A DNA stretch of 64,000 nucleotides. It comes from a virus. Shown piece by piece: positions 10,994 to 33,123 of this stretch. A model generated the notes under the pieces. The model did no database searches and was not told where the DNA came from. It worked only from the letters and a program-made list of their open reading frames with translations. The stretch spans positions 2,470 to 66,469 of the IMG/VR virus record IMGVR_UViG_3300027896_001999; one strand, 5' to 3'. A program made the position numbers and the translations under genes. Every line of letters starts with the position of its first letter. Within the stretch, counting starts at the first letter, position 1.

Positions 10994-11830
10994 TTATATC
11001 TCGTCCAATATAATCTTATACTTATTTTTACCAGTAGACACCAAGTTCTTCACCTTCCATTTTGTCTTTGAAGAATGAAGGACCTCGTTTTCTTTTCTAT
11101 GAGAAGACATAGACTTTAAGGAAATGCCTTTTTTATTGGGGCTTTCAAAAACTATAGAGATAGAGTCACCTATTCCAGTGCCTTCGGAAAATTTTTCAGC
11201 AATTCTATGATCTGACGACCAAGAAGATAATCCTTTCATGTCCACTGTAGAGCCTTTTCTAAAGGTATTATTTACATCAAAATCCGACCATCCTTCTGCT
11301 AAATCCAAACTGACTCCTCTATAAATTTTACTGTATCTATCTTTATAGACAGGGTAAAATTCAAACAGATTTTCTATTTTGTTTACATCATCTTTGTATT
11401 GCTTTTTACGGGACTCTGAACCATCAAACTTTCCCTGTTGAATTAATCTAAAGTCTGAAGGATCATTAGACCAACTTAAACAAGATTGATAATATTCTTT
11501 TGCTTTTTGTTTTGTTATTGGAAATTTTGCGTCTAAGGCACAATTCATTAAATCTTTTATAGAATCTTCTTCTCCATAAATTGTATCTATGTGCCCTCTT
11601 TCCCCTCGCACGGATTTCCCAGGAATGTTATTTGGGTCTTCTTTTTTCCCAGAAGACCGTTCTTTCGGAACTTCTTTCTTCGGACCCGCCTTGTCCGGGA
11701 CCCATTTGCTTCCAGCGTAATGAAACGGACGACCGAAGATCATCTTCTTTTGACCTTCCTCCGCTTTCATGACATTAAGAAGTTCCATCACTATGGCTTT
11801 CTGTAGTTTAAAAGAATTTTTATTTATCAT
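10994..11830 (-). CDS. Shared-leader protein with C-terminal ADP-ribosyltransferase (R-S-ExE, VIP2-like)
   Basis: KIYRGV, LSSWSSD and KENEVL catalytic motifs; N-terminal 50 aa match 32065-33123 and 27896-28345. Confidence 0.85.
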   Translation of the reverse strand: MINKNSFKLQKAIVMELLNVMKAEEGQKKMIFGRPFHYAGSKWVPDKAGPKKEVPKERSSGKKEDPNNIPGKSVRGERGHIDTIYGEEDSIKDLMNCALDAKFPITKQKAKEYYQSCLSWSNDPSDFRLIQQGKFDGSESRKKQYKDDVNKIENLFEFYPVYKDRYSKIYRGVSLDLAEGWSDFDVNNTFRKGSTVDMKGLSSWSSDHRIAEKFSEGTGIGDSISIVFESPNKKGISLKSMSSHRKENEVLHSSKTKWKVKNLVSTGKNKYKIILDEI

Positions 11831-12096
11831 CTTATGGGTATCTTCAACGACCTTATTTTTGATAAATCAAAACCGGCTTCAAATAGATCTTCAATATTAT
11901 GTTCTACAGCTTTATAGACTTCGCCCTCGGTCCCATCTCCATATCTTGCCGTAACAATTTCATCTATGGCATCACCAACTCGAATATTAGACAAAGAAGC
12001 CGTAGAATATTTCGGGTATTCCCTTAGATCCTTCACTGCGTAATGATCTCCATAAATATCTATGAAAGGAACAGTTTCTATCGTTTGATATCTCAA
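11827..12096 (-). CDS. gpX/LysM-like baseplate protein
   Basis: GDAIDEI...YG...LKIP pattern; position. Confidence 0.65.
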   Translation of the reverse strand: MRYQTIETVPFIDIYGDHYAVKDLREYPKYSTASLSNIRVGDAIDEIVTARYGDGTEGEVYKAVEHNIEDLFEAGFDLSKIRSLKIPIR

Positions 12097-12683
12097 TATG
12101 ACTTCTCTCCGTTCATGCTTTTGTAAATATCGTAAGCCCCATACACCATCCCAGTAAGAGCCGCCATCTTTCTGAAAATTTCTTCAGACTTGTACAACGG
12201 ATTCGTTTCGTCTAACCAAAGTTCCATACTTATCTCAGAGTACTGAGGTTGCCCAAGAGCGTTCACCCATCCTTGTTTATGGGAAGCATCACATTTCTTC
12301 ACCCAATAAACCAATGGAACTGAACCGGTCCCCCAATAATACAGAACTCTCGGGGTAGTTTCAAACTGATCAGAAAAGAAATCCGTAAGACCAACTGCAT
12401 TCTGTCTAAGCATGTCAAATTGCTTTAGCATAAGAACATTGCCAACGGTATTATTTCGTTTCATAAGTGGCAAAGTAAAAGCAATTTTCCGATTCCCGGC
12501 TCCGCCAGGAGTGATCGGTGAAAAGTTTAAGCCGGGAATCGGAGTTTCACTTAAGACTATATCTTTAGTGTCAGATATATCCCCAGGAATGGTTACGCTG
12601 GTTATCAATTGATAATTGTCTATATCAAACAAGAACCATGGAATATGAAAAGAATACCTTGCTATGTCTAAACTCAGTTTCAT
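12093..12683 (-). CDS. Tail tube initiator (gpU/gp48-like)
   Basis: Follows the tape measure; IPGLN..P..G.GNRKI.F, P.VL..WG motifs. Confidence 0.7.
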   Translation of the reverse strand: MKLSLDIARYSFHIPWFLFDIDNYQLITSVTIPGDISDTKDIVLSETPIPGLNFSPITPGGAGNRKIAFTLPLMKRNNTVGNVLMLKQFDMLRQNAVGLTDFFSDQFETTPRVLYYWGTGSVPLVYWVKKCDASHKQGWVNALGQPQYSEISMELWLDETNPLYKSEEIFRKMAALTGMVYGAYDIYKSMNGEKSY

Positions 12684-14002
12684 TTGTGGGCAACTCCCTC
12701 CCCTTCAAAACCAAGATTGTTTCTTAGACCATCCTTAAGGCTCCAAGCAATTCCCGCTCCAACTTCTACACCAACTTGTTTCGCATTTGACGGAGCAGAA
12801 ACATTGACATTTATCGTACTGTCTATCTTGCTATTTATATTAGTCGAACTTGAAGATTTCTTTGCCAGAACCTCCTTTGTTGGTTCTGATACAAATGTTT
12901 CTTTTATATCTTTAAGGTTATTTGCCCAACCCTTCCAATTCGCATCTCCTAATGCCTTGAATCTCTTTTGATACTCATCGGCCATTTTTTCTTTTTCTTC
13001 ATACAGTCTTTTCATCTTTACACGATCGTTTTCTCGCCATGCCGAAAACATTTCACCTGCGTTCACTGCTCTTTCTATAGTGAAAGCCAATACATCAAAG
13101 ATCAATGCCAAAAGTCTTATAGCCGGTGCAAGAATCATTCCCACCAAGTTTCCTATCGTTCTAAAGAGAGCAACCACAAATCCTCCTTTGGTCAATACCT
13201 TGTCCAATGCTTCGTACAGTCTTACGAAAGAACCTACGAAAGATGCGATCAAAGGTCCTGCATCTTCAAATCCTTTTGAAAGACCGATAACAAACGCACC
13301 CACCCATTCAATCAGTTTTGCCCACCGGCTGGTGAGTGTTTCAAAGAAAGGTTTCATGACTTCCAATATGTAAAGTGCTACCACAGTAATCTTAAACATT
13401 ATGATATTTATAATATCGCTCATTGTCTTTGTAGTTCTACCAAAGATGGCTTCTAATTTTCGTGTCAGAGACTCCATCATAGTATGAACGACATCTACTA
13501 TTGCCTTTACAATAGTATAGACCGCCCTAAAAGCATTAGCGATCATCACTCCCCACTTTACGAACATCACTCGGTGTTCTCTTGTCCAGTCTAAAATCTT
13601 TTGTAATATCGGAATGAGTAGTCTTCGTAAAGGCCAAAAAAGACTTCTTTGTATGATGTCCCCCACGTGGGAGAATGTTCTTCCTATTTCAGGGACACCT
13701 TTCATCACAGACTGAAGACTGACATATGCCGTAGCAAGGCCAACAAGTTTCTTGGTCAATGCAGATATCATTGCACTGGACCCTTCAGAAAAATTACTGA
13801 CACTGGTCTTTAGTGCACTGCTGGCTTCTTTTGTCTTAGTCTTAGTCTTTCCAGTGACTTCATCAACACCAGATCGTATTTTCTCCCCTGCGCTGGTGGT
13901 CATGCTTTCAATGGTGTTCTTCAAACCGACCATGCTGTCCGCAATGGTGTTTATAGAACTTTGCATAGACTTTGTATCAAATGTGAATATCGCATCTTCC
14001 AT
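12680..14002 (-). CDS. Tape measure protein (short, 440 aa)
   Basis: Amphipathic helical composition; between the chaperone and the tube initiator. Confidence 0.8.
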   Translation of the reverse strand: MEDAIFTFDTKSMQSSINTIADSMVGLKNTIESMTTSAGEKIRSGVDEVTGKTKTKTKEASSALKTSVSNFSEGSSAMISALTKKLVGLATAYVSLQSVMKGVPEIGRTFSHVGDIIQRSLFWPLRRLLIPILQKILDWTREHRVMFVKWGVMIANAFRAVYTIVKAIVDVVHTMMESLTRKLEAIFGRTTKTMSDIINIIMFKITVVALYILEVMKPFFETLTSRWAKLIEWVGAFVIGLSKGFEDAGPLIASFVGSFVRLYEALDKVLTKGGFVVALFRTIGNLVGMILAPAIRLLALIFDVLAFTIERAVNAGEMFSAWRENDRVKMKRLYEEKEKMADEYQKRFKALGDANWKGWANNLKDIKETFVSEPTKEVLAKKSSSSTNINSKIDSTINVNVSAPSNAKQVGVEVGAGIAWSLKDGLRNNLGFEGEGVAHK

Positions 14003-14031
14003 TCAAACCACCTTCGTATTGTCACTTTTAC

Positions 14032-14182
14032 CCTGTAAAACGTTAAAACCGGTCTTTTACCTGTTTTAATACCGTTTTATACAGCACCGGTGACTCCCAG
14101 CAAGGTTTTATAAAGTTCCCGCTCATAAGGGTATTATGCTAAAAATAAAACCTTTATTTATTGATATGTATAGTAAAAAAGA
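14032..14182 (-). repeat. 151-bp non-coding element, copy 1
   Basis: Reverse complement matches 62362-62512 with about 6 mismatches (hand alignment). Confidence 0.95.
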
Positions 14183-14185
14183 TGA

Positions 14186-14398
14186 CTACTCCGATTGATC
14201 TGTGTCTTTTCTTTTTTGTAAAGCATCTGCGTAATTCACCGTGAACAAATAATCTTTCATGCTCATGTCACAAATGTCTTTCATTGTAATCCCACCACTA
14301 CTCTGTCTACATATAAGAAAGCTTTCTTTGACAATGTCTTGGAACTCTACATCAATATGACAAACATTAGAAAACAACCATAACCAGTCAGGACTCAC
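14186..14398 (-). CDS. Tail assembly chaperone C-terminal part (likely -1 frameshift extension)
   Basis: Lies in the -1 frame of 14404-15237, open back to the slippery site; no convincing RBS. Confidence 0.65.
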   Translation of the reverse strand: MSPDWLWLFSNVCHIDVEFQDIVKESFLICRQSSGGITMKDICDMSMKDYLFTVNYADALQKRKDTDQSE

Positions 14399-14403
14399 CC
14401 ATC

Positions 14404-15237
14404 TTAGAGAGTAAGTCCGGAAACGAAAAAATTTGACAGATTGATCGGAACTCTAAATTTTTTGTCGCAAGAGGGACAGACTTTGTCAACGTTCGGATTG
14501 ATACCATATTTTGAGACTTCGGTATTGAGTGCCCCCAAGTCTACTCGTGCATCTTTGATATTTTCAAATATCAATATGCCATATAGACTTTTATCTTTCT
14601 TTTCAACTTCCATCCCGTTTATCTTTTCCATGGCTTCTACATACATAGCAAACTGCATACGCACACTATCGTTAGAGCCATATTTTCTTTCTGCAACCAT
14701 ACAGTCATTTAGAGTCGGATGACGAAGTGTCATGGACTCTACGGACAAAAGAACATCTTTTGTACTTTGATTTATTATATTCACGGGCTGAGAAAGACTT
14801 ACCGTAAAATTTGGGACTATCTCTTCCATGAAAGTCGTTTCAAGTTGAGAAATGAAATCTCTTGTGTCAATCTCCATTTCCCCTTCTTTCACAAATTCAT
14901 TCACAATTCTAAACCCGCAACGAGGGCATCTATAAACCCCTTCCGCTCCATCATTGTCTGGGTCATATAGAATCATAATCTGAATCATGCAAAATTCTGC
15001 CGACCGATATGGTATAAATCCTACCATATTCTTAATATCCGTCTTATCTGAAATAACCCTTTCGTCACTTTTAATAGATTCTATGCAACCAGATAAGAAA
15101 GACTTGACAGCGGACATGACCATACCGCTGTCAATGAATTTCTTAGCATCAGCTATGACTATCGCCTTTGGACGAACTATCTCTACTTCAGTAAAAATAT
15201 TTCCTGAGGGCATAAAGACAGGAATTGGTAATTTCAT
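14404..15237 (-). CDS. Tail assembly chaperone / baseplate-hub assembly protein
   Basis: Between tube and TMP; two CxxC pairs; LRHPT.D; ends ..SNFF.. Confidence 0.75.
   Translation of the reverse strand: MKLPIPVFMPSGNIFTEVEIVRPKAIVIADAKKFIDSGMVMSAVKSFLSGCIESIKSDERVISDKTDIKNMVGFIPYRSAEFCMIQIMILYDPDNDGAEGVYRCPRCGFRIVNEFVKEGEMEIDTRDFISQLETTFMEEIVPNFTVSLSQPVNIINQSTKDVLLSVESMTLRHPTLNDCMVAERKYGSNDSVRMQFAMYVEAMEKINGMEVEKKDKSLYGILIFENIKDARVDLGALNTEVSKYGINPNVDKVCPSCDKKFRVPINLSNFFVSGLTL
14425..14434 (-). promoter_or_regulatory. Predicted -1 ribosomal slippery site (A AAT TTT TTC)
   Basis: Two overlapping X XXY YYZ heptamers in frame 0 near the chaperone 3' end; the -1 frame reads into 14186-14398. 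Confidence 0.65.
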
Positions 15238-15246
15238 AAATACTCC

Positions 15247-15669
15247 TTATACGGCATCAATCGGCGTTATTTCCCATGGCAGTATTGTAATGGCCATCTG
15301 GGCATAAGCCGGATTGGCTAAATCTGTGTCGGGCATCAATTGGATTTTCAGACCTTCACATTGAGATAAAAGAACTCTACCGAACTCCGCTCCATGGGCG
15401 TCTGTCCGAACTATAACAACATCTTTTATCTCATCATCTAAAAACCAGTTCGTAAGAAACTCTTTGGTGTTGGTTCCTCGATTGAGTTTGTATTTCAACT
15501 CGTATGGAGGATACTTGATAATACCATTTTGGATATTTCTTATCCTACGAAACTCGGGTATTTCAACTGAACCCTTTTCCAAAAGCATTTCCCCGGCAAA
15601 TACAAGTCCTGCAAGCTCTACTCCATCTATTAGGACTTTTTTCTTTTCTACCATTTCATTTGGTTGCAT
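15247..15669 (-). CDS. Tail tube protein
   Basis: 140 aa directly after the sheath gene. Confidence 0.8.
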   Translation of the reverse strand: MQPNEMVEKKKVLIDGVELAGLVFAGEMLLEKGSVEIPEFRRIRNIQNGIIKYPPYELKYKLNRGTNTKEFLTNWFLDDEIKDVVIVRTDAHGAEFGRVLLSQCEGLKIQLMPDTDLANPAYAQMAITILPWEITPIDAV

Positions 15670-15680
15670 CTATTTTCTCC

Positions 15681-17501
15681 TTAACTTAAAAGTAATATAC
15701 CAACACCAATCTTAATGCTTCCAGCCGGTGCAGGATAAGAAAACCAAACATCCAAGTTTCTTTCTCCTGCTTGAATGCTTGTCTGTGGATTATTTATGGC
15801 ATCTGCCTGAACCTGGAGATGGTCTGACCATTTCGTAGGCTTGCCATTCACATCTTCAGATTGGCCAAAGGTTTCCCCTTCTGTCACATATCCGGTTGAT
15901 CCCTTTAACCATAAGCGTAATAGGAACTGCAATATTGCATCCCTATCTGATAAGATTCTATTGAAGCTGTTTGGCGTGTTCTCGGAAGACTGAAGTGAAT
16001 CTACCGCAGAAACTTTTATAAACTCTCTCATAAGAATTCCATTGCCAAACTGAAACTCAACACTTGTTGAAGGTGTGAAGAAATTCCTTATTACAAATCC
16101 TGAACCGTTTATAAAATCGATTACGTTCACACCATTCTTTGCCAAGTCTGTACGATCCGTATCACTCCACATGGTTGTCCTAACAATATTGTTGATACCA
16201 TAAAGAGGGATTTCTTTTACTGCAGGAATAACATGAATACCCAACTTAGATATCGTTCGTATCCATGCGCCCATCACATGACCAACACTGGGGATTTCTC
16301 TATCTGCGGCCAATGCAGAAGAAGCAAATGGGTCATTAACCTTCAGCCAATCACAAACAATAACTCCAAGAACATCGTCTGATCTCTGGTAACCATTTCC
16401 TATGGTTATGTATTGAGCCTTCGTTTGATTTTCGGCCACATTATAAATAACTTTTGGCAAGTCCCATCTTGTCCTGGAATATACTTCAATCGCCTTCTGA
16501 AGAGCGACATCAGTCGTTTCCGGATTGGCTATGAATCTTATGGGCAACAAATTAAAGGCAAGCAAATCACTTGCCCAATGCGCCACAGTCGTAGGTGCCG
16601 TTCCGTTCGCTCCTGTTGTCAAATACGTAACGGTAGCAACTGTAGCGGGAAGAGTAGTCCCAAGAGCTCCAATAGAATGTAGATCTGTCACTTTGACATA
16701 TTTGCTACTTGCAAACACGTTTTCAACAAAGTAGTCAGATACAGCATCTTCCATCGTACAATAAATTTTGCCAAGTTCTTCTTCCACCTGAGTGATTATG
16801 CCAAGAGGAGACTTTCGCCATATCTTAAGTTGAAAACCTGGAACCGTGACTATGTCATTGTCTTTAAGATAAGCAGCTGCGTCGAATGCTGCAGCAAATG
16901 TTATTTTCCCCAAGGTTTCATCAACCGTTAAGACAATTTTATAGACGGTCACTACCGCATCTCCGGTCGCCATAAACTTTACGACATCCCCGACCTTGAC
17001 ATCAGAAACACTGTCAAGGATAGCCCAAGTGTTTGTCTTCACTCCAGACCCACTGGCGGCAGTAGTAAACCTTGAACCCTGTGTGATAGTGTACCCTGTT
17101 CTATTACCCCATGTGGAATAGTCAAGAGCACCTTCGTAAGCTGAATCTAAACGAAACGAGGGCAATGCTGTGTCCAATATAGTATTGCCTGTGGTAGCAA
17201 CCACTCCGTCTATTGCCGCAGCAAACCCTACATGGCTGCAAACATACAGTTTCGCATCTACACCAGCAACATTGTCAAAAAAACCTTTAACCGAGTCCCA
17301 TCCGTAATATGTAGACGTTTCTTGATTGCCAAATATCTGAGCAAACTCTGTAATATTGTTGCAAAGTTTTGGCAGAACGTATTTCCGTTCAAACAGTCCA
17401 AGAATTCCCCCAATATTGAAATCAGAAGCACGAACGGTCTTTGACTTCTTGGTAGGGAGAGAATCTCCATATACTCCGAGTCTTCTTAAATTTGTAGGCA
17501 T
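15681..17501 (-). CDS. Tail sheath protein
   Basis: GVY N-terminus, F..IFG, GFFDN, IPSVGHVMG, GVN.I, NP...IQAG..N.DV.F..PAPA..I motifs. Confidence 0.93.
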   Translation of the reverse strand: MPTNLRRLGVYGDSLPTKKSKTVRASDFNIGGILGLFERKYVLPKLCNNITEFAQIFGNQETSTYYGWDSVKGFFDNVAGVDAKLYVCSHVGFAAAIDGVVATTGNTILDTALPSFRLDSAYEGALDYSTWGNRTGYTITQGSRFTTAASGSGVKTNTWAILDSVSDVKVGDVVKFMATGDAVVTVYKIVLTVDETLGKITFAAAFDAAAYLKDNDIVTVPGFQLKIWRKSPLGIITQVEEELGKIYCTMEDAVSDYFVENVFASSKYVKVTDLHSIGALGTTLPATVATVTYLTTGANGTAPTTVAHWASDLLAFNLLPIRFIANPETTDVALQKAIEVYSRTRWDLPKVIYNVAENQTKAQYITIGNGYQRSDDVLGVIVCDWLKVNDPFASSALAADREIPSVGHVMGAWIRTISKLGIHVIPAVKEIPLYGINNIVRTTMWSDTDRTDLAKNGVNVIDFINGSGFVIRNFFTPSTSVEFQFGNGILMREFIKVSAVDSLQSSENTPNSFNRILSDRDAILQFLLRLWLKGSTGYVTEGETFGQSEDVNGKPTKWSDHLQVQADAINNPQTSIQAGERNLDVWFSYPAPAGSIKIGVGILLLS

Positions 17502-17502
17502 T

Positions 17503-20615: not shown

Positions 20616-20618
20616 CAG

Positions 20619-23290: not shown

Positions 23291-23304
23291 GTGTCTTCTC
23301 CCTA

Positions 23305-23631: not shown

Positions 23632-25080
23632 TTATACGACCCTGAGACCCCTGACCATCGCGCAAGTGGCTTCGAATGAATCCGCCAGAGCTCCGTATGT
23701 CTTGATAAGGAACGGTAAGAAGTCATCAGTCCTTGCAAGGTCTTCAATTGTAACAAGACCATTGAACTGTGAACCGCCTTCGTTCGTATAAGGCATACGA
23801 CCAATTCCCTGGAACTCGTCTAAGTCCCAAAGAACGACCACTTCCGGGGGTATTAGAGCTGTCAAATTCAGAGGAATGTCCAGCCTCATTCCGACGGGAA
23901 CTTCTGCACCCACAGTGGCCGGAGTTGTCTGAAACCTCATAGACGTAACGTTTCCATTGGCGTCTGAAGTCCATCTCTTGTCGGCTGCTGCCGATATGTC
24001 GGTGTCTGAAACTGTCTTTGTTCCGTTTGCATCGTATGTGAACCCCGGAATTATGTGCCTCAGATATACTGTGCCGGCAACTGTTCCGACATATATCTTA
24101 TAGCGATAACACTGAGTGTTCGCCGCCCATGTGAGGGTGATGTAATTATCGTTACCACCACCACCAGCGGTCGTGACAGTCACTTCGGCGCAAGCAATTT
24201 CTTCACCGTTTTTTGTGATTCCGGCAACCTGGAAAAAGAAAGGAAGATTATCTGCGATAGCACCGGTTCCGATAACTGCCGCCGGAGTTACCACAGGCAT
24301 CGTGGTCTTAGGTCTGCAACCACTGGAGACTATGATCGGAACATCCCGATAAGCATTTAATCTCCATCCACCCGGGATATCAACCTGTGAGAAAGATCCG
24401 CTCAGACCCTGATTCAACCTGACGTTGGTTAGGAGTTGCGAAAACTTTGATAACATCTGAGGGGACATAACGAATGCTTTTTTATGAGCCATCCCCTGAA
24501 GTTCAAAGTTCGCATCAATCAGGTCATCAAGCTCTTTCAGATTGGTAGGAACGACCCCACCTGAAGTTTTATTGAATCTGTTGGTGGCGATGAAAGTGTC
24601 CAGACCGCTGTATTCCCACGGATTCGCTACTGCGTTTCCATACATATTGTAATTACAGAGGTCATGAACATGCGAAATGAGTTCCGACTCAATGTTTGTC
24701 GCGGCGGAATCCACATTCTTTTTGCTGGCATTCTGTAAGAAGTTGGTTGTTGCTCCCTTCCTTCTTACGACTTTCAGAGCAACATTCGCTCTTGTGAAAG
24801 TCGGCTGAGTTACTGGCGTTACTGCACTTTCGCCCATCGCTCCACCGATCCCGCCGAGTGCCGTTAATCGGTTAAACTCATGAGTTGACTGATTGTCAAA
24901 CTGAGGTGTGACCATCGCTAATTCCGGGGAAATCCTCGGTAAAGCGTTGGTTATGATTGCTTCCAAGTGCTGTGGGATAAGAGCTCCGCCGGAGTTCGCT
25001 GCTCCAGTCAAGGCTTTCGCCAACTGGCTCTTATTCTCACCAGCCCAACGATTAAATTGCTGAATTATCTCGTTGTTCAT
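23632..25080 (-). CDS. Major capsid protein
   Basis: GGALIPQHLE N-arm, YGN....EYSGL, FVMSP; follows protease and scaffold; strong RBS; inserted beta-sandwich. Confidence 0.9.
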   Translation of the reverse strand: MNNEIIQQFNRWAGENKSQLAKALTGAANSGGALIPQHLEAIITNALPRISPELAMVTPQFDNQSTHEFNRLTALGGIGGAMGESAVTPVTQPTFTRANVALKVVRRKGATTNFLQNASKKNVDSAATNIESELISHVHDLCNYNMYGNAVANPWEYSGLDTFIATNRFNKTSGGVVPTNLKELDDLIDANFELQGMAHKKAFVMSPQMLSKFSQLLTNVRLNQGLSGSFSQVDIPGGWRLNAYRDVPIIVSSGCRPKTTMPVVTPAAVIGTGAIADNLPFFFQVAGITKNGEEIACAEVTVTTAGGGGNDNYITLTWAANTQCYRYKIYVGTVAGTVYLRHIIPGFTYDANGTKTVSDTDISAAADKRWTSDANGNVTSMRFQTTPATVGAEVPVGMRLDIPLNLTALIPPEVVVLWDLDEFQGIGRMPYTNEGGSQFNGLVTIEDLARTDDFLPFLIKTYGALADSFEATCAMVRGLRVV

Positions 25081-25141
25081 ATTTTAGATTCTCCTTTAAT
25101 GTGATTTTACTTATTTAGAAAGAACTCCGATTGAACCCTTT

Positions 25142-25975
25142 CTACTTCTTTAACGTATTTTTTGCGTTGATAGCGAATATGGACGCAAGGCCAAGGCCAT
25201 TGTTGTCTGTCAAGGATTTTCTTAATGAATTGTTCCCATTGTCGGGAGCAGCCACATCGGAATTCCCTCTAACACCAAGAGCGGTCTTAAGAAAGTCAAG
25301 GGTCTTTTGAAGATCCTGTGAATCGTTAGGAACCTTGCGAGCTTCCATGGACTTCTTTAATTCTGTCTCTTGAATCTTCACCTGTTCCGCAATACCCATT
25401 CCTTCAAGTATATTGGAAAGAGCTTTTTTGATTTCATGATTTTCCGCTCTTACAGATTCAAGGGATTTCCTTAGCTTAAGATTTCCTTTTGACGTTTTCT
25501 GTACTGTTCTTTTTGAGGACTTTCCGCCCATCAGGCTCTTTACAATAGCTTTCGCCACTGCATCGATGTTCTTGTCATTGATATCACCGAGATCATTAAC
25601 GACCTCTTCAGCATCATCTGATGCATTGGTGCCTTCATCTGACTTATCAACATCTTCGTCCTCATCTTCGTCATCGGACTTTCCGAGTTCGTCATCATCT
25701 TCGTCCTCATCTTCGTCCTCTGCTTTTTTCAAGTCTTCGTCTTCATCTTCGTCCTTTGCTTTTTTCAAGTCTTCGTCTTCATCTTCGTCCTTTGCAGGAC
25801 CATCGGACTTCTGTAGCCATTTAAGAACAGATTTCGCCACTTCAGGACTCATCTCAGCTTCCCCAGGTTTTTTCCCGGGTTCAAGAGGCTCATTACCGGT
25901 CATCATCTTGGCTTCTTCTACAAGAGAGCCGATATTTGAAAGAACGGTATTCAATTCTGGTTTTTCCATAAACAT
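25142..25975 (-). CDS. Scaffolding protein with acidic tandem repeats
   Basis: Between protease and MCP; (K/E)DEDEDEDLKKA repeats; many K-[S/A] motifs. Confidence 0.75.
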   Translation of the reverse strand: MFMEKPELNTVLSNIGSLVEEAKMMTGNEPLEPGKKPGEAEMSPEVAKSVLKWLQKSDGPAKDEDEDEDLKKAKDEDEDEDLKKAEDEDEDEDDDELGKSDDEDEDEDVDKSDEGTNASDDAEEVVNDLGDINDKNIDAVAKAIVKSLMGGKSSKRTVQKTSKGNLKLRKSLESVRAENHEIKKALSNILEGMGIAEQVKIQETELKKSMEARKVPNDSQDLQKTLDFLKTALGVRGNSDVAAPDNGNNSLRKSLTDNNGLGLASIFAINAKNTLKK

Positions 25976-25980
25976 TCTCC

Positions 25981-26892
25981 TTAATTTAAAGATTTGATCA
26001 GAGTATCTATCTCTGATATTAAAGATTTGATTACAACGATCTTGTTGTTCGGATTATGAACTTTCTCTTCTTGAGACTTCTTGTAATCAAATATACTTTC
26101 GGAACCAACAATAAGATCCGTCATCACGGATCCGTACTCGCTAAACAATCTCCCAAGAGCTTCTCTCTTGTCTCTGAGGCTCTTGTTCACCATAATGCTT
26201 TCTATCATATCTTCGAACTTATCTTGGTACTGATATCTCTTTTTATAATAAGTGCCTTGAATATTGTCAGCTTCCAATGAAGCCTTGAACGTGTTAATTT
26301 CTTTGTCCAAAAGATAAGGGGAATTCTCTCCCAGTGCCTTGAAAACGGCATGAGCCACGGATGTCTTATAGGCTGGCCTCGGAACAACCACAGCTCCGTC
26401 TAAAGCTACATCGTCGATCACTCTTCGTCCGTCGCTTGCCATTGAAAGAATACCGTTTGGTGGAATGTACCCTTCTACTGAAAACCCCTTCTGTTTGGGA
26501 ACTGCATAAGGCGGGAGTCCAAGCATCTGTTTCCACATCTTATCACACCTTTCTAAAGTGTTTGCCCCAACATCATCCGATTCATCGTACAATCTCCACT
26601 CCGCGTACCAGTCATTTTCAGGGGTGATCGCTGATGAAGTCAGTATACCTATGTCATCCGTGAATCGGATTCCATGCTTATCCGCGTAAAGAAGAAGACA
26701 ACCTTTATTGGCTTGTTCATGAAAGGACTTTATGCACTTTTCTGTAATCCTTTCGCCCTGTCCGTCGGTCTTCGTTCCAGATACGATACCTTTCAAGTAT
26801 CTTCTCTTCCGTCCTCCTTCGTCTTTTTCAACATAATGCCCTTTGTTGTCAAAGTCAAACGGCTGATACTGGAACTCTATTCTTTCTTCCAT
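25981..26892 (-). CDS. Prohead protease
   Basis: R.LKGI.S..TDGQGERI, His in DKHG, GFSVEG serine motif, VV.RPA. Confidence 0.88.
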   Translation of the reverse strand: MEERIEFQYQPFDFDNKGHYVEKDEGGRKRRYLKGIVSGTKTDGQGERITEKCIKSFHEQANKGCLLLYADKHGIRFTDDIGILTSSAITPENDWYAEWRLYDESDDVGANTLERCDKMWKQMLGLPPYAVPKQKGFSVEGYIPPNGILSMASDGRRVIDDVALDGAVVVPRPAYKTSVAHAVFKALGENSPYLLDKEINTFKASLEADNIQGTYYKKRYQYQDKFEDMIESIMVNKSLRDKREALGRLFSEYGSVMTDLIVGSESIFDYKKSQEEKVHNPNNKIVVIKSLISEIDTLIKSLN

Positions 26893-26934
26893 CGTCTTTC
26901 CTCACTCTTGTATTGTTAAGACCAATTGAGGTCT
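26890..26934. repeat. 45-bp direct repeat R1, copy 1 (includes RBS and ATG of the protease)
   Basis: Identical to 29367-29411. Confidence 0.95.
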
Positions 26935-27127
26935 CTATTTACTGATTTCGGAGTTTCTTTCTTCCCACCAGCTCCGCCCTTATCAGAGACCCACTTGCCT
27001 CCGGAATACGTGAAAGGTTTTCCGAAGATCATTTTCTTTTGACCTTCGTTTGCCTTCATGATGCAATTTACAAACTCCTCGCGATTGCTTTCCGAAGTCT
27101 GGACTTCACAGACTTTTGCACTTTCAT
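26916..27127 (-). pseudogene. Shared-leader cassette, frameshifted, almost no cargo
   Basis: MKVQKSVKSRLRKAIA / 1-bp deletion at ~27078 (ATG to AG) / EFVNCIMKANEGQKKMIFGKPFTYSGGKWVSDKGGAGG...NWS*; near copy of the start of 27896-28345. Confidence 0.8.
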
Positions 27128-27157
27128 TTCACGCCCTCTTTATAAGATATTGAACTT
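27121..27157. repeat. 37-bp direct repeat R2, copy 1 (3' end of MuF-like gene plus leader start)
   Basis: Matches 28339-28375 with one mismatch. Confidence 0.9.
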
Positions 27158-27896
27158 CACAATTACAGTTTATCTTTTCCCCAATAGGGAGACCCGTCCA
27201 ATGAGGATGTGGAGTCTTATACACTTTCTTATCTTTCGAATTCAGTATGAACATGTCTTGAAACATGATCGGGTCTCTTTTCGCTATGTCTCTATGATGT
27301 TCACGTGGAACCTTAGAAAGTCTTGCATTATGAATCCACCGTTTCATGACAGCGGAATCTTTATTTTGCTTTATAAACTCCCTGAAATAGTCGTGCTTAG
27401 ACTCATTTGAGGCAGTTCGTAAAGCTGTCGTTGCTATGCCTTTACAGTTCTTCGGAACTCCGAATACCTTGTCTATCTTAGTGTAATTCTTAAAGATCCG
27501 TTTCGTTTCGTCCTGAAACTGCTTTATCGTATTTTTCTTCGTCGTACCGGCTCTCACTCCGGTTCGTACGTCTACCTTAGAATCATTAAGTATTCCGGTT
27601 AATCTACTGTTCAGTATCCGTTTCAGTTCGTCTGTTATGGAATTCCCAGTTTCTGTGCTCTTTATTCTATTGAACTGATGTGTTGGCTTGATCACCCTGA
27701 TCTCAGGCAAATTCATCCTTTTTGAAGTGTCACTTATCCTTGCATTTTGAGCGGAAAAGAAATCATCGAACATCCTTAAAGTCAGGTCTTGAATCTTCTC
27801 TGTATTATACTGTAGAACCCGCTGTATGATCCCACGATACGAGCCGGTCGTGAAATCATAACGCATGGATAATCTTTTCTTATGTATCTTTCCCAT
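27129..27896 (-). CDS. MuF/SPP1 gp7-like minor head protein
   Basis: IATT..R.A.N, KRWIH, PREHH, PHP and INCNC motifs; between portal and protease. Confidence 0.78.
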   Translation of the reverse strand: MGKIHKKRLSMRYDFTTGSYRGIIQRVLQYNTEKIQDLTLRMFDDFFSAQNARISDTSKRMNLPEIRVIKPTHQFNRIKSTETGNSITDELKRILNSRLTGILNDSKVDVRTGVRAGTTKKNTIKQFQDETKRIFKNYTKIDKVFGVPKNCKGIATTALRTASNESKHDYFREFIKQNKDSAVMKRWIHNARLSKVPREHHRDIAKRDPIMFQDMFILNSKDKKVYKTPHPHWTGLPIGEKINCNCEVQYLIKRA

Positions 27897-28345
27897 CAGC
27901 TACTAATATCAAAGTCTGGATTTTGGTAAGCATTCATTTCAGCTTTCATTTGCATAATTTGATCTTTCACTTCAGAGTGAACATCCTTTAGTCTTTTCTT
28001 ATCTTTTGGTGTCAAAGATTTATCGTTCTGCAGTACGTGAGATAATTTTTTATGGTATCTCTTTAAGTCATCTCCATCCATCCGATAAACATCGTCAACT
28101 TTCAAATCTCTTACCTTTGGTTCATTGGCTTCATTTATACTTCGTCCAGAATCTTCTGTTTCTTGGGAAACATCTTTCTTCCTACCAGCTCCGCCCTTAT
28201 CAGAGACCCACTTTCCTCCGGAATACGTGAAAGGTTTTCCGAAGATCATTTTCTTTTGACCTTCATTTGCCTTTGTGATATAGCTCACCAACTCCATCGC
28301 TACTGCCTTTCGGAGTCTGGACTTCAGGTTCTTTTGTACTTTCAT
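27896..28345 (-). CDS. Shared-leader protein with short helical cargo
   Basis: Intact leader followed by ~90 unrelated residues. Confidence 0.8.
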   Translation of the reverse strand: MKVQKNLKSRLRKAVAMELVSYITKANEGQKKMIFGKPFTYSGGKWVSDKGGAGRKKDVSQETEDSGRSINEANEPKVRDLKVDDVYRMDGDDLKRYHKKLSHVLQNDKSLTPKDKKRLKDVHSEVKDQIMQMKAEMNAYQNPDFDISS

Positions 28346-28375
28346 TTCACACCCTCTTTATAAGATATTGAACTT
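28339..28375. repeat. Direct repeat R2, copy 2
   Basis: Orphan copy of the MuF-like 3' end in front of the 28345 leader gene. Confidence 0.9.
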
Positions 28376-28391
28376 TCGCACTATTTGATAT

Positions 28392-29369
28392 TTACTCTAT
28401 ATCCATCTTCTGGCTCTTCGGCTTGCTTATTTCTTCATTACGTTTACTCAAGTACTCATCTTCAAGATAATTCGACAAAGATTGAAATTCCTTACTCTCA
28501 TCATTATCAAGGCTCTTGTACCCACTCCGTTTAACGGTCGCCCATGCTTGCTTGGAACAAACTTCCTTATTTCCTCCACCTGAACGACATGATTCATAAA
28601 CGTGTTGAAGTTGTCTTGCTCCTTTCGGCTCCATCCCTTTTCCAGGGGAAAGACCTTCTTTGACTTTCTTACCGCAGCCTTTGTCCACATTTTCAAGACC
28701 TTTGTCTTTGGATTCAAGGTTTTTCTTTCCACAATTCTTTTCTATCTTGCTAACAAAATTGTCGAGTTCTGGGAACATCCCTTTCTCTTTGCCTTCGCTG
28801 TAATACTTTGGATTCTCCGTCAGATGATCATTAACAATCTTCTTTATTAAAACAGGGTCAGCCGTATGTTCCGCTTCAACTATCATTCCCATAGCAACTT
28901 CATCTGAATCATGCGTTCCTTCGTCTCCCTTCGACGTTCCTCCTGCGAGGAAGCTCTTTAAGATTTCATATATCTTATCTTCGACCTGGGAAGGTTCGAT
29001 CCTCAATTTAACGGCCAATCCATGAATGTCGGAGTCCGTTGGGTTCTTAACCAAACGGAACAACTTCAGTATTTCTTTTTCGAGTGAGTCGTCTTTTCGT
29101 TCTTCTTTCTTCAAAAGAAACTGAAGCTGTCCTTTACAGACAACAAGTTTATTTCTCAGTTCCGCCTTCCTTATGTCTTGGTAAGAAACTCCCGACTTAC
29201 GCATCCCATAAGCGATCGCCTCTGAATGTTCTACAATAGGTTTATTGTTCTCATCTTTTAGAACACCATTCTTATAGTCTATCATAGCTTTCGTAAAATA
29301 GTTGGTCATCGTATTTCGTTTCGCTTTACGATTTCGTCTATCCTGAGAGTTCTTAAACTGTTTACTCAT
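28392..29369 (-). CDS. Mosaic head-region protein (DUF6496-like, DUF5661-like and ChaB-like segments)
   Basis: M.DYKNG.L...SEAIAYG; MGM.VEAEH....KIV.DHL.E.P.YYS; A...QHVYES...SKQAWATVK. Confidence 0.6.
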   Translation of the reverse strand: MSKQFKNSQDRRNRKAKRNTMTNYFTKAMIDYKNGVLKDENNKPIVEHSEAIAYGMRKSGVSYQDIRKAELRNKLVVCKGQLQFLLKKEERKDDSLEKEILKLFRLVKNPTDSDIHGLAVKLRIEPSQVEDKIYEILKSFLAGGTSKGDEGTHDSDEVAMGMIVEAEHTADPVLIKKIVNDHLTENPKYYSEGKEKGMFPELDNFVSKIEKNCGKKNLESKDKGLENVDKGCGKKVKEGLSPGKGMEPKGARQLQHVYESCRSGGGNKEVCSKQAWATVKRSGYKSLDNDESKEFQSLSNYLEDEYLSKRNEEISKPKSQKMDIE

Positions 29370-29411
29370 CGTCTTTCCTCACTCTTGTATTGTTAAGACC
29401 AATTGAGGTCT
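29367..29411. repeat. 45-bp direct repeat R1, copy 2 (includes RBS and ATG of 28392-29369)
   Basis: Identical to 26890-26934. Confidence 0.95.
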
Positions 29412-29418
29412 TTATGTT

Positions 29419-29911
29419 TTACCATTCACTATCACCACTGTTTCTTCTTTTCCAATCTTCACTAAGATCCCTATGCGCACTCTTTATTTCTTTAGGGCTC
29501 ATTGTTGAAAGTTCTTTCGGTGTGAACATCATAACCGACTCCAGTTCTTCTGCCATGTCTTGAACCTTAAAACTTCTTTCTTCTTTGCCTTTTGGTTCAA
29601 TCTTCTTTGGTGCTTCCATAGATCTCCCGGAACTTTTCCCACCAGCTCCGCCCTTATCAGAGACCCACTTTCCTCCGGAATATGTGAAAGGTTTTCCGAA
29701 GATCATTTGCCTTTCCAACACAATTAAGCACTTCCATCGCGACCGCCTTCCGTAGCTTGGACTTCAGGTTCTTCTTTGCTTCTTTGTATGAAATCTTATT
29801 AGTTCTGTCAGCTGTTCCGTCGTGTATCAGTTTCCCATCTTGATCATACACAGCGAAAATGGAATCAGTCTTTTGTCTTTCCTTTAAATTCTCTTTTGTT
29901 CTTGCCATCAT
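29419..29911 (-). pseudogene. Cargo-leader-cargo gene split by a 17-bp deletion (ORFs 29657-29911 and 29419-29721)
   Basis: KNLKSKLRKAVAMEVLNCVGKAN / MIFGKPFTYSGGKW; relative to 28345 it lacks AGGTCAAAAGAAAATGA between two AAATGA copies at ~29705. Confidence 0.75.
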
Positions 29912-29912
29912 A

Positions 29913-30092
29913 CTACTCCTCAAATAATTTATCAACAGCTTTAATCATTTCTTCGGGCGTCTTATCTTCATCAAGAATTCCATATACAGAATCTTCAATG
30001 AGTTTAAAGACCGCCATAAGATCAAGCTCCAACGGAGACTGAAGATCATCGAACTCCGATTGAGTTGTTTTGGGAATCTTAAATTCACTCAT
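29913..30092 (-). CDS. 59-aa acidic protein
   Basis: Hand translation MSEFKIPKTTQSEFDDLQSPLELDLMAVFK...VDKLFEE; fills the gap after the portal. Confidence 0.6.
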   Translation of the reverse strand: MSEFKIPKTTQSEFDDLQSPLELDLMAVFKLIEDSVYGILDEDKTPEEMIKAVDKLFEE

Positions 30093-30211
30093 TTTTGCCT
30101 TATAGCAAAGGGAGCAAAGAAGTATCGTGCTTTTTTATTTGTCGGTCTCCCAACCTCTTGATCCAGATACTCTTTGCTTCCCCAACTTTCATTTATGCTA
30201 CTGACTTCAAT

Positions 30212-31801
30212 TTATTGTTGCCCACCGACGTTCTTCATATTGAAAGGATTTCCGCCTGAACCATCTGGAGGCTGTCCCCCCGGTTGCCCTGAAGGCTTAT
30301 CAAACTGTTCACCTTCAAATGGATCATCCCCGCGTTCTCCACGCAACTCGTTGATAGCAAACACTCCCGTCTGGACCTTCATTTGAAGTATCTCTAAATC
30401 TTCCTTGTCTGACTTCCCGCCTCTGTATTCCACTTTCCAACCAACTCCGTAACGAAACGGTAAGATCTCCCGATTATACAAAGTTTCAATCGTCTTAACG
30501 ATAGGAAGAACAGCTTTAGAATGATACATCTGACTCTGAATCTCTGACGTAGAACGACCTGACGTATTGTCGCTCCCCGCCAAGTTCATTTCCATCGGAG
30601 TTGCTTGAAACACAAGACCGACTTCTTCGCGTATATCTTTTTGTCTTTGCATCTGAATACTCATCGTATCTCGTCTTGACAAATCTACAACCTGCACATT
30701 ATTCCCACTGAAGGTCATCACTGCTCCGAACTTCGGAGTATTGATTTTTTCCTCAAGACGATTTTGCTCGGTCACTTCCATCGGAGCCTCAAACTCCTTT
30801 GACAAATCTCCGAACGGTGATTGTTCCGTAACAATTACAAGTTTCTCCGGAGGACGAGTTCCATCGGACTCTTCTGCCATAAGCCGATCAAAGAACAGCG
30901 TTTCAATTATAAGATTTATAAGTGCTTCCAAGGGAACGAGTCCGTACGCTCTTGCAGTAGTCGGAATATAGTTTGCGAAAGCAATTTCATCGCTGAAGTA
31001 TATCTGAGGCTGATCATAGCCATGGATTACTTGAACGTATGCATTAGGACCTCCGACAGTCTTAGTTTTCAACGGAAGGACCGTTCCTCCGGGAAGTGCG
31101 TATATGTTCTCCAGTCTATTGTCTTCATGTTGTTTATAAAGAGCGATAGAACCGTGAATCATCAAATCAAACACCATAGCTTTGACGAATTCTTCGTATC
31201 TATAGTTTATATTGGGCTCAGCCATCCATTCTTTAATGATTTCAGATTGATCTGTCTTTTGATTCTGTATTTTTTTCTTCCATCTCAACAGAGATGTATC
31301 AAAATTAGAAAGATCAGGGAGCGCATCGGTAAGCGTCTCCCTGATCTCTTTCACCAGGAAGGTTCGTGCTACTAAGAACTTCGGTTCGGTCGACTTAGCA
31401 TATTCTTTATATAAATTACGATAATTTTTTAATCTCTGTGCAATGCGATCTTCGTCTTTCTTGTCAGATACAATATCAAATTCCATGGTAGATATTGTAT
31501 GCATTCTTGAAGCGACCACCGCGTGGACTGGAACGCACATACGAAACATCATTATCCGTTCTTCAAGTGTCAAAAAGAACAGAGACTGATCATAAGAGCC
31601 GGTGATCAATCGTCCGTCTTTGTCAGTACCAGATATGTTTCTTAGCTGTGAAGTCGTATAGACCTGAACTCCACGTTCGGGCTTCCTATGACCAAACCCG
31701 GACAGAGGCTGAATGGAGTCGTTCGTTGTGGCTAAAGACTTCTGAACTGTGTCTTTCTTCGCCGGTAGAACTCTATTTCTTATAGTTTGTACTATACCCA
31801 T
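30212..31801 (-). CDS. Portal protein
   Basis: PN..Y....F...MV.DL.IHG, YGLVPLE.L, F...P.EM, INELR.E.G.DP..G..D.P motifs. Confidence 0.92.
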   Translation of the reverse strand: MGIVQTIRNRVLPAKKDTVQKSLATTNDSIQPLSGFGHRKPERGVQVYTTSQLRNISGTDKDGRLITGSYDQSLFFLTLEERIMMFRMCVPVHAVVASRMHTISTMEFDIVSDKKDEDRIAQRLKNYRNLYKEYAKSTEPKFLVARTFLVKEIRETLTDALPDLSNFDTSLLRWKKKIQNQKTDQSEIIKEWMAEPNINYRYEEFVKAMVFDLMIHGSIALYKQHEDNRLENIYALPGGTVLPLKTKTVGGPNAYVQVIHGYDQPQIYFSDEIAFANYIPTTARAYGLVPLEALINLIIETLFFDRLMAEESDGTRPPEKLVIVTEQSPFGDLSKEFEAPMEVTEQNRLEEKINTPKFGAVMTFSGNNVQVVDLSRRDTMSIQMQRQKDIREEVGLVFQATPMEMNLAGSDNTSGRSTSEIQSQMYHSKAVLPIVKTIETLYNREILPFRYGVGWKVEYRGGKSDKEDLEILQMKVQTGVFAINELRGERGDDPFEGEQFDKPSGQPGGQPPDGSGGNPFNMKNVGGQQ

Positions 31802-31804
31802 TAT

Positions 31805-32068
31805 TTATTTCTCTTCCAGTGTCTTTCGGCAATCGCCCATAAGAGCCTTACGGATGTTTGACTTGATAGAAAGCTTCTTAATCAGGTCTTCCTCTGAAGC
31901 TCCCTCCGATAATCTGTATCCCCATTTAGCAACAAGAGCGAGCGCATAATTAGGATTATCTACCTTCGGGTATTCCTTCTTGTCCTTCTTATCTTTTTTA
32001 TTTTGAACGATCCACTTGTCTCCGTCATCATAGACGTCATACGAACCGTTCTCACAGAGTTTCTTCAT
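31805..32068 (-). CDS. Small protein with the helical half of the shared leader at its C-terminus
   Basis: Ends SIKSNIRKALMGDCRKTLEEK, compare SVKNNLRKALISDCLSVLKAEE at the start of 32065-33123. Confidence 0.7.
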   Translation of the reverse strand: MKKLCENGSYDVYDDGDKWIVQNKKDKKDKKEYPKVDNPNYALALVAKWGYRLSEGASEEDLIKKLSIKSNIRKALMGDCRKTLEEK

Positions 32069-33123
32069 ATTTGAGCCCTTTCAAACTCTATTCCATTTTC
32101 TTTAGCAAACTTTTCTAATTGTGCCTTTTCTTTTTCCCAACCTGTATCATGTCTTGGAACCACTATTTTTGCAATATGCTCTTTCAGTTGAATCCCGCCA
32201 TGAATCTGTGCTTCAATGTACCCTTTGCCGGACTTTGTCTGTTCTACATTGTGCACAGACATATCCAACCAATTTCTTCTGAATTGGTCTTTCACATCAA
32301 ACAACTTTTTGGCCTGTCCTCTTACAAATGCTCCCGACGCATCGGAAGAATCTGAAGGGGTGAATGTGGATCTGTCTTTTATGTCATCTTTAAAAACAAG
32401 TTGGACATCTCCGTATTGAGAAGTATTGAACTTCCCAGAAGAAGTAGCTATAAAGCCATACAAAGGTTTAGAGGCAGGATGACTGTTAAAGTATTCATCT
32501 TTCTCTAATTCTGAATCACTCTGATTCATTTCTTTTTCATAATTTCCATCGTCAATAATTCTATGCTCCCAATGATTTCTGCCTTGTCTGGACAAACTCC
32601 CACCACTTGTCCTGGTTTCCCACTGATTCTTTAATTCTCCTGAAGCCAAAATAGATTCTACGTTTTGAAAATCCACTCGAATCATGATTGGATTTTCTTC
32701 AATAGAATTGTCTAAATAATCTACCCAATCTTTAAGGTCTTCTTCATATGGTTCTTTAGAACCTGTAGAAGATCGAAGATTCGGGTCTTCCAAGTCTTTT
32801 GCTATATCCTCTATAGACCGATCAGTGCTATTATTCTTCTTAGCAGTTTCAAATCTTTCTAAACCTATTTTATATTGCTTTTGACGTTCTACTTTCTCCT
32901 TTTCTTTCTTCTCTTTAGGAGAATCCGTCCATCCTCCGTCTTCTTCTTTTTTAGACCGTTCTTTTGAACCCTCTTCCTTCTGACCTTCCTTGTCTGGAAC
33001 CCACTTGCCTCCGGCGTAATGAAACGGACGTCCGAAGATCATCTTCTTTTGTCCTTCCTCTGCTTTCAGTACACTAAGACAATCGGAAATGAGTGCTTTT
33101 CTTAAATTGTTTTTTACACTCAT
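32065..33123 (-). CDS. Shared-leader protein with DUF3626-like (predicted ART-fold) domain
   Basis: IL.SG.LKNQWET.TSGG, R...E, P.YG, QYG....FK, RSTFT..DS, YIEAQIHGG motifs. Confidence 0.75.
   Translation of the reverse strand: MSVKNNLRKALISDCLSVLKAEEGQKKMIFGRPFHYAGGKWVPDKEGQKEEGSKERSKKEEDGGWTDSPKEKKEKEKVERQKQYKIGLERFETAKKNNSTDRSIEDIAKDLEDPNLRSSTGSKEPYEEDLKDWVDYLDNSIEENPIMIRVDFQNVESILASGELKNQWETRTSGGSLSRQGRNHWEHRIIDDGNYEKEMNQSDSELEKDEYFNSHPASKPLYGFIATSSGKFNTSQYGDVQLVFKDDIKDRSTFTPSDSSDASGAFVRGQAKKLFDVKDQFRRNWLDMSVHNVEQTKSGKGYIEAQIHGGIQLKEHIAKIVVPRHDTGWEKEKAQLEKFAKENGIEFERAQI

Follow-up and report, generated by a model that had tools for sequence, protein, structure and literature searches.

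The window analysed here is a 64,000-nucleotide stretch of viral DNA, bases 2470-66469 of the 66,469-base IMG/VR virus record IMGVR_UViG_3300027896_001999, which is rated 100% complete. Six of its late loci carry all or part of one short protein module, which consists of a helix, a Lys-Ala (K-A) pair, a three-stranded β-meander and a charged linker and is joined to different proteins, here called cargoes. A first-pass annotation made from the letters alone had placed such a module at six loci; all six are confirmed on the minus strand, and a profile of the copies searched against the whole 66,469-base record returns exactly seven pieces (E 1.6e-34 to 6.6e-6) and no further matches.

Three of the copies are intact genes. 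c1 (10994-11830, 278 aa) begins with the module (first ~50 aa, 11681-11830), which is followed by a charged linker and a probable ADP-ribosyltransferase (ART) cargo. c2 (32065-33123, 352 aa), located between the terminase large subunit gene (terL) and the portal gene, combines the module (32974-33123) and linker with a DUF3626 cargo. c3 (27896-28345, 149 aa) joins the module (28184-28345) and linker to a 95-aa helical tail, and its stop overlaps the start of the gene for a MuF protein. Two further copies are broken. c4 (29419-29935) has a 42-aa N-terminal extension ahead of the module and, compared with c3, c5 and an intact orthologue in the related locus L014, misses 17 nt inside the module; protein P0011 is a second intact orthologue. 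c5 (26916-27127), between the MuF and prohead protease genes, misses 1 nt inside the module and ends in a tail of just 17 residues. With no cargo of its own and a 3' end that duplicates the 3' flank of c4 (98%, repeat D12), c5 looks like a decaying remnant. The same broken forms of c4 and c5 are present in contigs of one sequencing run, which is probably the source sample and is not independent support; full read coverage of the region comes from contigs of this one probable source run alone. The sixth locus, the open reading frame ORF87 (31805-32068), holds only the helical half of the module, at its C-terminus, together with an [IVL]-x-K-A site, and its N-terminus resembles that of c4. ORF87 also overlaps the c2 stop by 4 nt, and this is the position of the immunity gene in MuF toxin loci.

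Among the three intact leaders, 26 alignment columns are invariant. Over a 28-codon core, c1 and c2 differ by seven synonymous and two non-synonymous codons, and the comparisons of c1 or c2 with c3 or c5 give 9-10 synonymous versus 6-7 non-synonymous differences. As synonymous differences exceed non-synonymous ones, the codon pattern indicates that the protein sequence of the module is under selection and that DNA conservation alone is not the cause. c3, c4 and c5 share flanks, are 91-99% identical in DNA and are, to judge from their sequences, recent copies.

All late genes lie on the minus strand. The order is terL (33127-34755; phrog_675, 9.1e-60), c2, ORF87, portal (30212-31801; Pfam and PHROG matches), ORF59 (29913-30092), c4, a 325-aa DUF5661-like head-module protein in the c4/c3 interval (28392-29369; PF18905, 3.1e-5, below cut-off), c3, a short MuF core of 255 aa (27129-27896; phrog_2468, 5.9e-10), c5, a candidate S78-like prohead protease (25981-26892), an acidic scaffold (25142-25975) and an HK97-fold major capsid protein (MCP; 23632-25080; TIGR01554, 1.3e-6). 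Neck, sheath (15681-17501), tube, tape measure (12680-14002) and baseplate genes follow the MCP. As had been proposed, five of the six loci lie in the interval from terL to the protease; c1 is the exception and belongs to the tail module, with the tape-measure region on one side and baseplate genes on the other. Replication and nucleotide-metabolism genes occupy the plus strand from ~35,600. The phage looks like a lytic myophage, and the sequencing runs that contain it are labelled as freshwater and sediment metagenomes.

The module family and its predicted fold

Word-based searches with residues 1-50 of c2 and 1-54 of c3 retrieved eight and six proteins, respectively, all near relatives, in which the module is almost unchanged and the ART cargo and other tails have diverged. 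A profile search of 1.84 billion representative proteins returned 67 matches at E≤0.001, 19 of them at E≤1e-10. Four spurious multi-stretch matches (P0017, P0024, P0060 and P0065) were set aside, which leaves 63 credible proteins, or 69 in total with the near relatives. The idea of a portable conserved element on many cargoes is thereby borne out. The module is N-terminal in 47 of the 69 proteins and internal in 22 (P0053 was placed by the range of its hidden Markov model match), so that the earlier term 'leader' fits the majority and is too narrow for the family.

The family consensus reads [VIL]-x-K-A-[EK]-[ES]-G-[DQ]-[KT]-K-[MST]-I-F-G-[KR]-P-[FY]-[TE]-[YF]-x-G-G-K-W-V-P-D-x-G-G, within which G-[DQ]-x-K-x-I-F-G-[KR]-P-x-x-[YF]-x-G-G-K-W marks the meander. 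It is followed by a stretch of 25 or more residues with a high content of K, E, P and S, and the low-complexity charged linker reported for the window is thus a trait of the family at large. No Pfam model covers the module in 59 proteins at E≤0.001, and the leaders alone, searched at E≤10, retrieve only SOUL (E 0.12), which was judged a chance match; the module also has no counterpart among the LPD families included in Pfam. PHROGs and NCBIfam gave no match, nor did a profile search of PDB sequences (best E 0.23) or a search of the ESM Atlas (best 0.75). The earlier view that the module is not a recognised family therefore holds across these libraries, none of which offers a match to a known non-virion domain. 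Among 185,579 species genomes searched for prophage copies, 40 pattern matches were obtained and none was confirmed, the patterns being narrow. The module is likewise undescribed in the literature searched, including the main texts of PMC5576092, PMC5512222 and PMC9503650, although an unnamed LPD in the supplement of PMC5512222 could still match it. It apparently represents a widespread and undescribed family.

An AlphaFold2 model of the 54-residue c3 leader, computed with a 33-row alignment, has a mean predicted local distance difference test score (pLDDT) of 79.7. It contains a helix at residues 3-24 (pLDDT 70-83) and an antiparallel three-stranded meander at residues 31-34, 37-42 and 45-48 (pLDDT 87-91). 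The same three strands are predicted at residues 257-274 of the MuF fusion protein P0059 (pLDDT 92-94), with poorly ordered linkers on either side. These models predict that the module folds autonomously as a mini-domain. The inference that it docks on MuF in cis, drawn from the pLDDT of the fusion model, was rejected because the leader alone reaches 87-91. Foldseek found no match for the P0059 model in the PDB at E≤0.001. When the 54-aa leader was compared with 48,161 chains by VIA-align, the best Z was 2.8, a noise-level value that shows neither novelty nor absence.

Cargoes, gene context and fusions

ART is the commonest named cargo, present in nine of the 55 family proteins scanned and, in addition, in c1 and its orthologues. 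The c1 cargo matches PF03496 (E 0.0015) and PF01129 (E 0.0026), both short of the Pfam cut-offs, and the minor head protein profile phrog_16619 (3.8e-11) in the interior of its 1440 positions; its orthologue P0003 carries PF03496. The c1 translation contains Y-R-G, S-S-W-S and E-N-E, which may correspond to the catalytic R, S-x-S and E-x-E type motifs of ARTs. The c2 cargo matches DUF3626 (PF12294) with 49.8 bits against a gathering threshold of 27 (E 3.3e-13), the best stretch covering profile positions 19-115 of 301. When the whole c2 protein is compared with GenBank phages, the match begins only at residue 128; the cargo resembles end regions of two kinds of protein, 'minor capsid proteins' from Streptococcus and Lactococcus phages and, likewise in cultured phages, ParB-like polyvalent proteins. 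Salmonella SopF is an ADP-ribosyltransferase. Since DUF3626 is the family of SopF (PMC6682159), a distant relationship in fold between the cargoes of c1 and c2 is possible. The first-pass annotation had called the cargoes unrelated; they are indeed different proteins, and the word is slightly too strong if ART and DUF3626 share a fold.

Other named cargoes are an LPD3 domain in P0059 and a pentapeptide-repeat protein in L010 (2.2e-50). No Pfam family was found in 40 of the 55 scanned members. Strongly acidic tails, with a net charge of -20 to -143, make up 20 of the 63 family tails of at least 60 residues; they may be DNA mimics or scaffold-like. Packaging and injection are assumed for ARTs whose genes neighbour head genes (PMC9503650), and InPase and LPD3 were defined on polyvalent proteins that are predicted to be packaged (PMC5512222). 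The window itself encodes a pentapeptide-repeat protein in the early region (39591-40271, plus strand; PF00805, E 3.9e-70; 15-nt periodic DNA, D1), and this kind of protein is therefore found both as an early gene product and, in L010, as a head-module cargo.

A profile of the protease collected 15 IMG/VR loci with 41-55% identity. The window and these loci share the order terL-portal-ORF59-slot-MuF-protease-scaffold-MCP, and ORF59 is kept 3' of the portal gene in nine related loci. Genes with the module are located in the slot or next to MuF in L008 (=L017, L019), L009 (=L032), L010, L016, L020/L022, L014, L015 and L034/L033. Between terL and the protease there are four such genes in the window, two in L009 and three in L013, and they also occur there in L008, L010, L014, L015, L016, L020/L022 and L034. 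A tail-module location is seen only for c1 and its L011 orthologue, and the module is therefore almost confined to head modules, a distribution that the first-pass annotation had proposed to check. L013 (3-2715) contains three tandem module-ART genes, each behind a remnant of the 3' end of the portal gene, and appears to be a cargo array that expands through duplication of the portal end together with the cargo. Tandem arrays and leader-to-leader joints in the relatives show cassette shuffling.

Four of the 15 protease loci carry the module (L019, L020, L022 and L032). Five, in which the interval from portal to protease is fully covered, lack it (L018, L023, L024, L026 and L031), and six are too short or only partly informative (L021, L025 and L027-L030). 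Because module-bearing and module-free phages are interspersed on the protease tree, where L020 is sister to L029 with support of 100/99, the module is, as the tree indicates, accessory and often gained, lost or replaced. In the module-free loci L018 (7800-7900), L026, L028 (1-60) and L029, other short Trp/Gly hairpin-like motifs with charged linkers are found at the MuF-cargo junction; that of L018 stands directly after V-E-K-A, and that of L028 precedes an ART (PF03496, 6.3e-15). Tags of different sequence may be interchangeable at this junction.

The first-pass annotation held that the module acts independently of MuF fusion, and this part finds no support in the relatives. P0059 consists of MuF (23-243, phrog_2468), the module (247-278) and LPD3 (345-429). 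In the 866-aa MuF protein of L009, the MuF core is followed by a degenerate module, which an acidic linker joins to a DUF3626-like cargo; L009 also keeps a canonical free module protein immediately before the protease. ORF59 of the window is a detached N-terminal helical piece, the same that heads the MuF protein P0077. ORF59-like pieces also begin P0070, which continues with InPase, the module and an ART, and P0049, which continues with InPase, an endonuclease-like stretch, the module and a further domain. A cysteine-bearing 'RCM' domain starts 10 of the 22 proteins with an internal module and also heads the L023 protease. This small domain has two cysteines and the pattern M-P-x-P-K-x-G-E ... 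F-x-S-R-C-M ... Q-R-x-A-x-C (L008:9431-9590; L023:4594-4750), is without a Pfam match, and is present as well in slot proteins of L024 and L026 that lack the module.

In the window, no polypeptide contains both MuF and a toxin, as the 255-aa MuF stops before c5; such fusions are found in P0059 and L009 only. Nor does any window gene encode two or more effector domains, as P0049 and P0070 do. The cargo genes nevertheless sit in the head module near the portal, like those of MuF toxins. MuF ends 2 nt before c5, so that fusion or fission of the two genes appears to be one mutation away. From this arrangement, the window would represent the fully split state of the MuF/polyvalent effector set, with one tagged cargo per gene, and not a separate system.

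A candidate protease site and the proposed role of the module

The K-A that the first-pass annotation had singled out is part of a motif, [IVL]-x-K-A, that is common to the leaders, MCP, scaffold and protease. In the family, the three informative positions before the meander are [VIL] in 59/66, K in 63/67 and A in 55/67 proteins, and in the c3 leader model the motif sits in the predicted loop between the helix and the first strand. A second copy lies within the helix of c1, c2, c3 and ORF87. The match between the MCP and the HK97 capsid model starts at MCP residue 8 and model position 88, which indicates that it has no delta domain. Its K22-A23, within [IVL]-x-K-A, is invariant in all 12 relatives aligned; L026 was excluded because its reading frame has no start near the N-terminus. 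HK97 loses a 103-residue scaffolding (delta) domain (PMC10275583), and K22-A23 would lie near model position 102-103, at about the place of the HK97 cut, although model and protein numbering may differ. Upstream of the module in P0018, P0028 and P0071, and in L018:6028-6474, the stretch G-E-A-L-V-P-Q-K-L-V-G copies the conserved N-arm motif of the MCP.

The window scaffold contains four [IVL]-x-K-A motifs, against 0.51 expected from shuffles. The protease contains one, behind the catalytic domain, where V-F-K-A-L-G-E is conserved, and the window late proteins outside this head-interior set contain eight against 6.84 expected. Among the relatives, whose scaffolds and proteases were not used to define the motif, observed and expected numbers are 26 versus 4.9 for scaffolds (about five-fold), 22 versus 3.3 for proteases and 13 versus 4.1 for MCPs; the motif is found near residue 190 in 11 of the 12 proteases. 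The controls gave 6 versus 3.2 for portal, 3 versus 2.1 for terL and 8 versus 5.0 for MuF. MCP, scaffold and protease are the classical substrates of prohead proteases. Because the leaders have the motif in common with these three proteins, [IVL]-x-K-A is probably a prohead-protease site, cut between K and A. Resemblance of the leader helix to the C-termini of scaffold and protease was examined as a case of mimicry and rejected: the best scores were reached by 1.3-1.5% of 1172 control windows and those of the other pairs by 4-48%, which is not significant over 10 comparisons.

We consider it slightly favoured, at roughly 55%, that the module is a capsid-loading and processing tag for injected effectors, and as such a functional analogue of the capsid-targeting sequence (CTS) of phage T4 and the split-gene counterpart of MuF and polyvalent fusions. 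The tag would belong to one lineage of HK97-type, MuF-bearing myophages and would comprise an amphipathic helix (or, in the longer members, a whole N-terminal domain), an exposed [IVL]-x-K-A, the self-contained meander, a flexible charged linker and any cargo. Late in infection, tagged proteins would be built into the prohead alongside MuF, scaffold and protease. The prohead protease would then cut between K and A in the tagged proteins, as in the capsid protein, the scaffold and itself, and release the cargo, which would now begin with the meander, from a propeptide, MuF or an adjacent cargo domain. The role of propeptide or anchor would fall to the helix or N-terminal domain. The cargoes (ARTs, the DUF3626 enzyme, DNA-mimic-like and other acidic proteins) would exit with the DNA and act on the host before phage genes are expressed. 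In a broader and rather tentative version, the module is a general portable loading-and-release code, in which the meander docks non-covalently on the inner face of the MCP, on MuF or on the portal, anything behind it is packaged, the K-A bond is cut, and related lineages use interchangeable tags.

Several points weigh against the tag as we picture it. One subfamily has K-Y where the others have K-A, and next to no propeptide, an argument for a loading function of the meander itself. A cut between K and A would leave the meander, the most conserved part, on the cargo, unlike the T4 CTS, and the role of the meander is then unexplained. c1 is encoded among tail genes, and two of the five full modules of the window are broken. 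A tblastn search of 50,697 GenBank phage records with two leader types found no match at E≤1, and hence no cultured relative. The five fully covered relatives that lack the module mean that it is dispensable for head assembly and that its partner is not inferable from co-occurrence. The protease (25981-26892) has no Pfam, PHROG, NCBIfam or PDB sequence match and was assigned only from its position, its conserved residues and its Atlas look-alikes, which are S78/S77 prohead proteases (0.94-0.96, 10/10 of one clan) and serve as a lead only. Finally, [IVL]-x-K-A was chosen after the leader and MCP had been seen, chance alone would produce a motif of four residues ~0.3 times per protein, and homologous scaffolds and proteases are not independent samples.

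The leading rival, to which we assign a rather low probability, is that the tagged proteins are split MuF toxins. The meander would dock in trans on the short MuF core or the portal-MuF vertex, much as effectors ride on VgrG or PAAR in type VI secretion, and cleavage would be secondary. The two independent fusions with the module directly behind the MuF core (P0059 and L009) agree with such docking, as do the leader genes that abut MuF (c3 and c5 in the window; L015; L034) and the presence of ORF59, an N-terminal piece of MuF, at the head of P0049 and P0070. In L009, moreover, the fused module is degenerate and the free one canonical, as expected if fusion relaxes a docking constraint. However, the module also stands behind InPase, HNH-like and RCM domains (RCM in 10 of the 22 internal cases, the MuF core in one), and the loss of a stop is enough to fuse neighbours such as MuF and c5, so that adjacency may explain the fusions; the strands are predicted nearly as confidently in the lone leader as in the fusion, which gives no sign of docking. 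It is less probable again that these proteins serve inside the head, as structural or assembly factors of a scaffold-like, DNA-condensing or charge-balancing kind that bind capsid or DNA through the module and are degraded or retained in the head. The acidic tails, reminiscent of the acidic stretch of the scaffold, and the many members without an enzyme domain would suit such proteins, and the helix-plus-strand build recalls the helix-turn-strand of the HK97 scaffolding domain on the capsomer (PMC10275583). Against this, ART, DUF3626, InPase, LPD3 and pentapeptide-repeat cargoes would be of use only inside a host cell, the module is missing from close relatives whose head proteins are the same, and the cargoes turn over fast and form tandem arrays.

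The location of c1 among tail genes could also be read as a sign that the proteins are late cytoplasmic or lysis-released factors, such as toxins against competitors, which stay out of the virion and use the module for folding, stability or oligomerisation; the near-universal placement in head modules and the covalent MuF fusions of the relatives make this improbable. Least probable of all is a functionless relic or recombination handle at the DNA level, left by recent duplications. The shared flanks of c3, c4 and c5, the two copies broken inside the module and the leader-to-leader joints of relatives would fit a relic, but the synonymous excess between subfamilies, the same residues kept in 63 divergent proteins with unalignable flanks, and the confident autonomous fold prediction do not, and family conservation together with the synonymous excess already largely refutes it.

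Comparison with known systems places the proposed tag between several of them. The CTS of phage T4 ends in a hydrophobic-x-Glu site that is cut by an S77 protease, and it is removed whole. In T4, the CTS of the internal proteins IPI-III and the Alt propeptide represent one conserved N-terminal element. The anti-host proteins that carry it are diverse and evolve fast; they enter the prohead, are cut by its protease and are injected (PMC3012670). The module likewise is one conserved element on unrelated variable cargoes, for which loading and cleavage would follow the T4 example. It differs in length (30-45 residues versus ~10), in its helix and meander and in its K-A site; it belongs to an S78-like, HK97-type head with MuF, is internal in 22 of the 69 proteins, and would leave its conserved part on the cargo. 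With MuF polymorphic toxins (PMC5576092) the tagged proteins share the kinds of cargo, namely ART and the DUF3626 found at the ends of 'minor capsid proteins', and the place in the head module. MuF toxins carry the cargo fused, whereas the window has a short MuF protein and encodes each cargo in a gene of its own; in P0059 and L009 the fusion runs through the module. The text of PMC5576092 describes no junction element and makes no mention of a linker or cleavage. MuF toxins are reported almost only in temperate phages (PMC5576092; Jamet et al., 2017), whereas the phage of the window looks lytic and the narrow patterns confirmed no prophage copy.

Polyvalent proteins (PMC5512222; Iyer et al., 2017) string together InPase, LPD3, ART, MuF and portal-linked domains and are predicted to be packaged in the virion, and two small proteins of this type, P0049 and P0070, have the module between their domains. 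Processing of polyvalent proteins is proposed to be performed by built-in zincin-like peptidases (PMC5512222); unlike them, the proteins described here have no zincin, and a candidate head-protease site and the meander lie at the junctions. In P1, ~30 N-terminal residues of DarB suffice to bring a foreign protein into a myophage capsid, and the natural cargo is anti-restriction (PMC9024508, PMC12810830). The P1 Dar proteins, however, have no consensus signal (PMC9024508), whereas one conserved module is reused here on many cargoes. In HK97, the end of the delta domain forms a helix-turn-strand on the inner capsomer surface beside the cut of the S78 protease (PMC10275583), and the window MCP keeps its invariant K-A at the matching place. 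That element is part of the capsid protein and precedes the cut, whereas in the module the helix would precede and the meander follow the putative cut, on separate cargo proteins.

In an HK97-type head, a tag that is conserved and recognisable and has a candidate protease site would provide a rule for a lineage known from metagenomes only and would link fused MuF/polyvalent effectors to free-standing genes. It would also point to early-acting enzymes and other proteins (ART variants, the DUF3626 enzyme, pentapeptide-repeat proteins and polyacidic possible DNA mimics) as candidates for host takeover or counter-defence. If a general loading-and-release code were true, the proteins that uncultured phages inject could be predicted from their sequences. 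MuF and polyvalent fusions on the one hand and split, tagged effectors on the other would then represent the same system in two states, and HK97-type capsids could be loaded with foreign proteins by means of the tag.

Other features of the window

The two arms of the genome meet near a 45-nt repeat pair (35915-35959 and 36462-36506, 80% identity), which resembles a tRNA T-arm and lies at the switch between late and early genes; ARAGORN finds no tRNAs. An esterase/lipase-like gene (3317-4138, minus strand; phrog_21992, 2.8e-17) is located amid tail-fibre and baseplate genes. On the plus strand, the region 48352-55700 encodes two glycosyltransferase-like proteins (phrog_842), a dNTP triphosphohydrolase-like protein, a ThyA-like protein and a dCMP deaminase, a gene set that makes hypermodified DNA possible in this phage. 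Two paralogous HNH endonuclease genes (50980-51363 and 60189-60671, plus strand) are 79-85% identical in DNA and are probably homing endonucleases.

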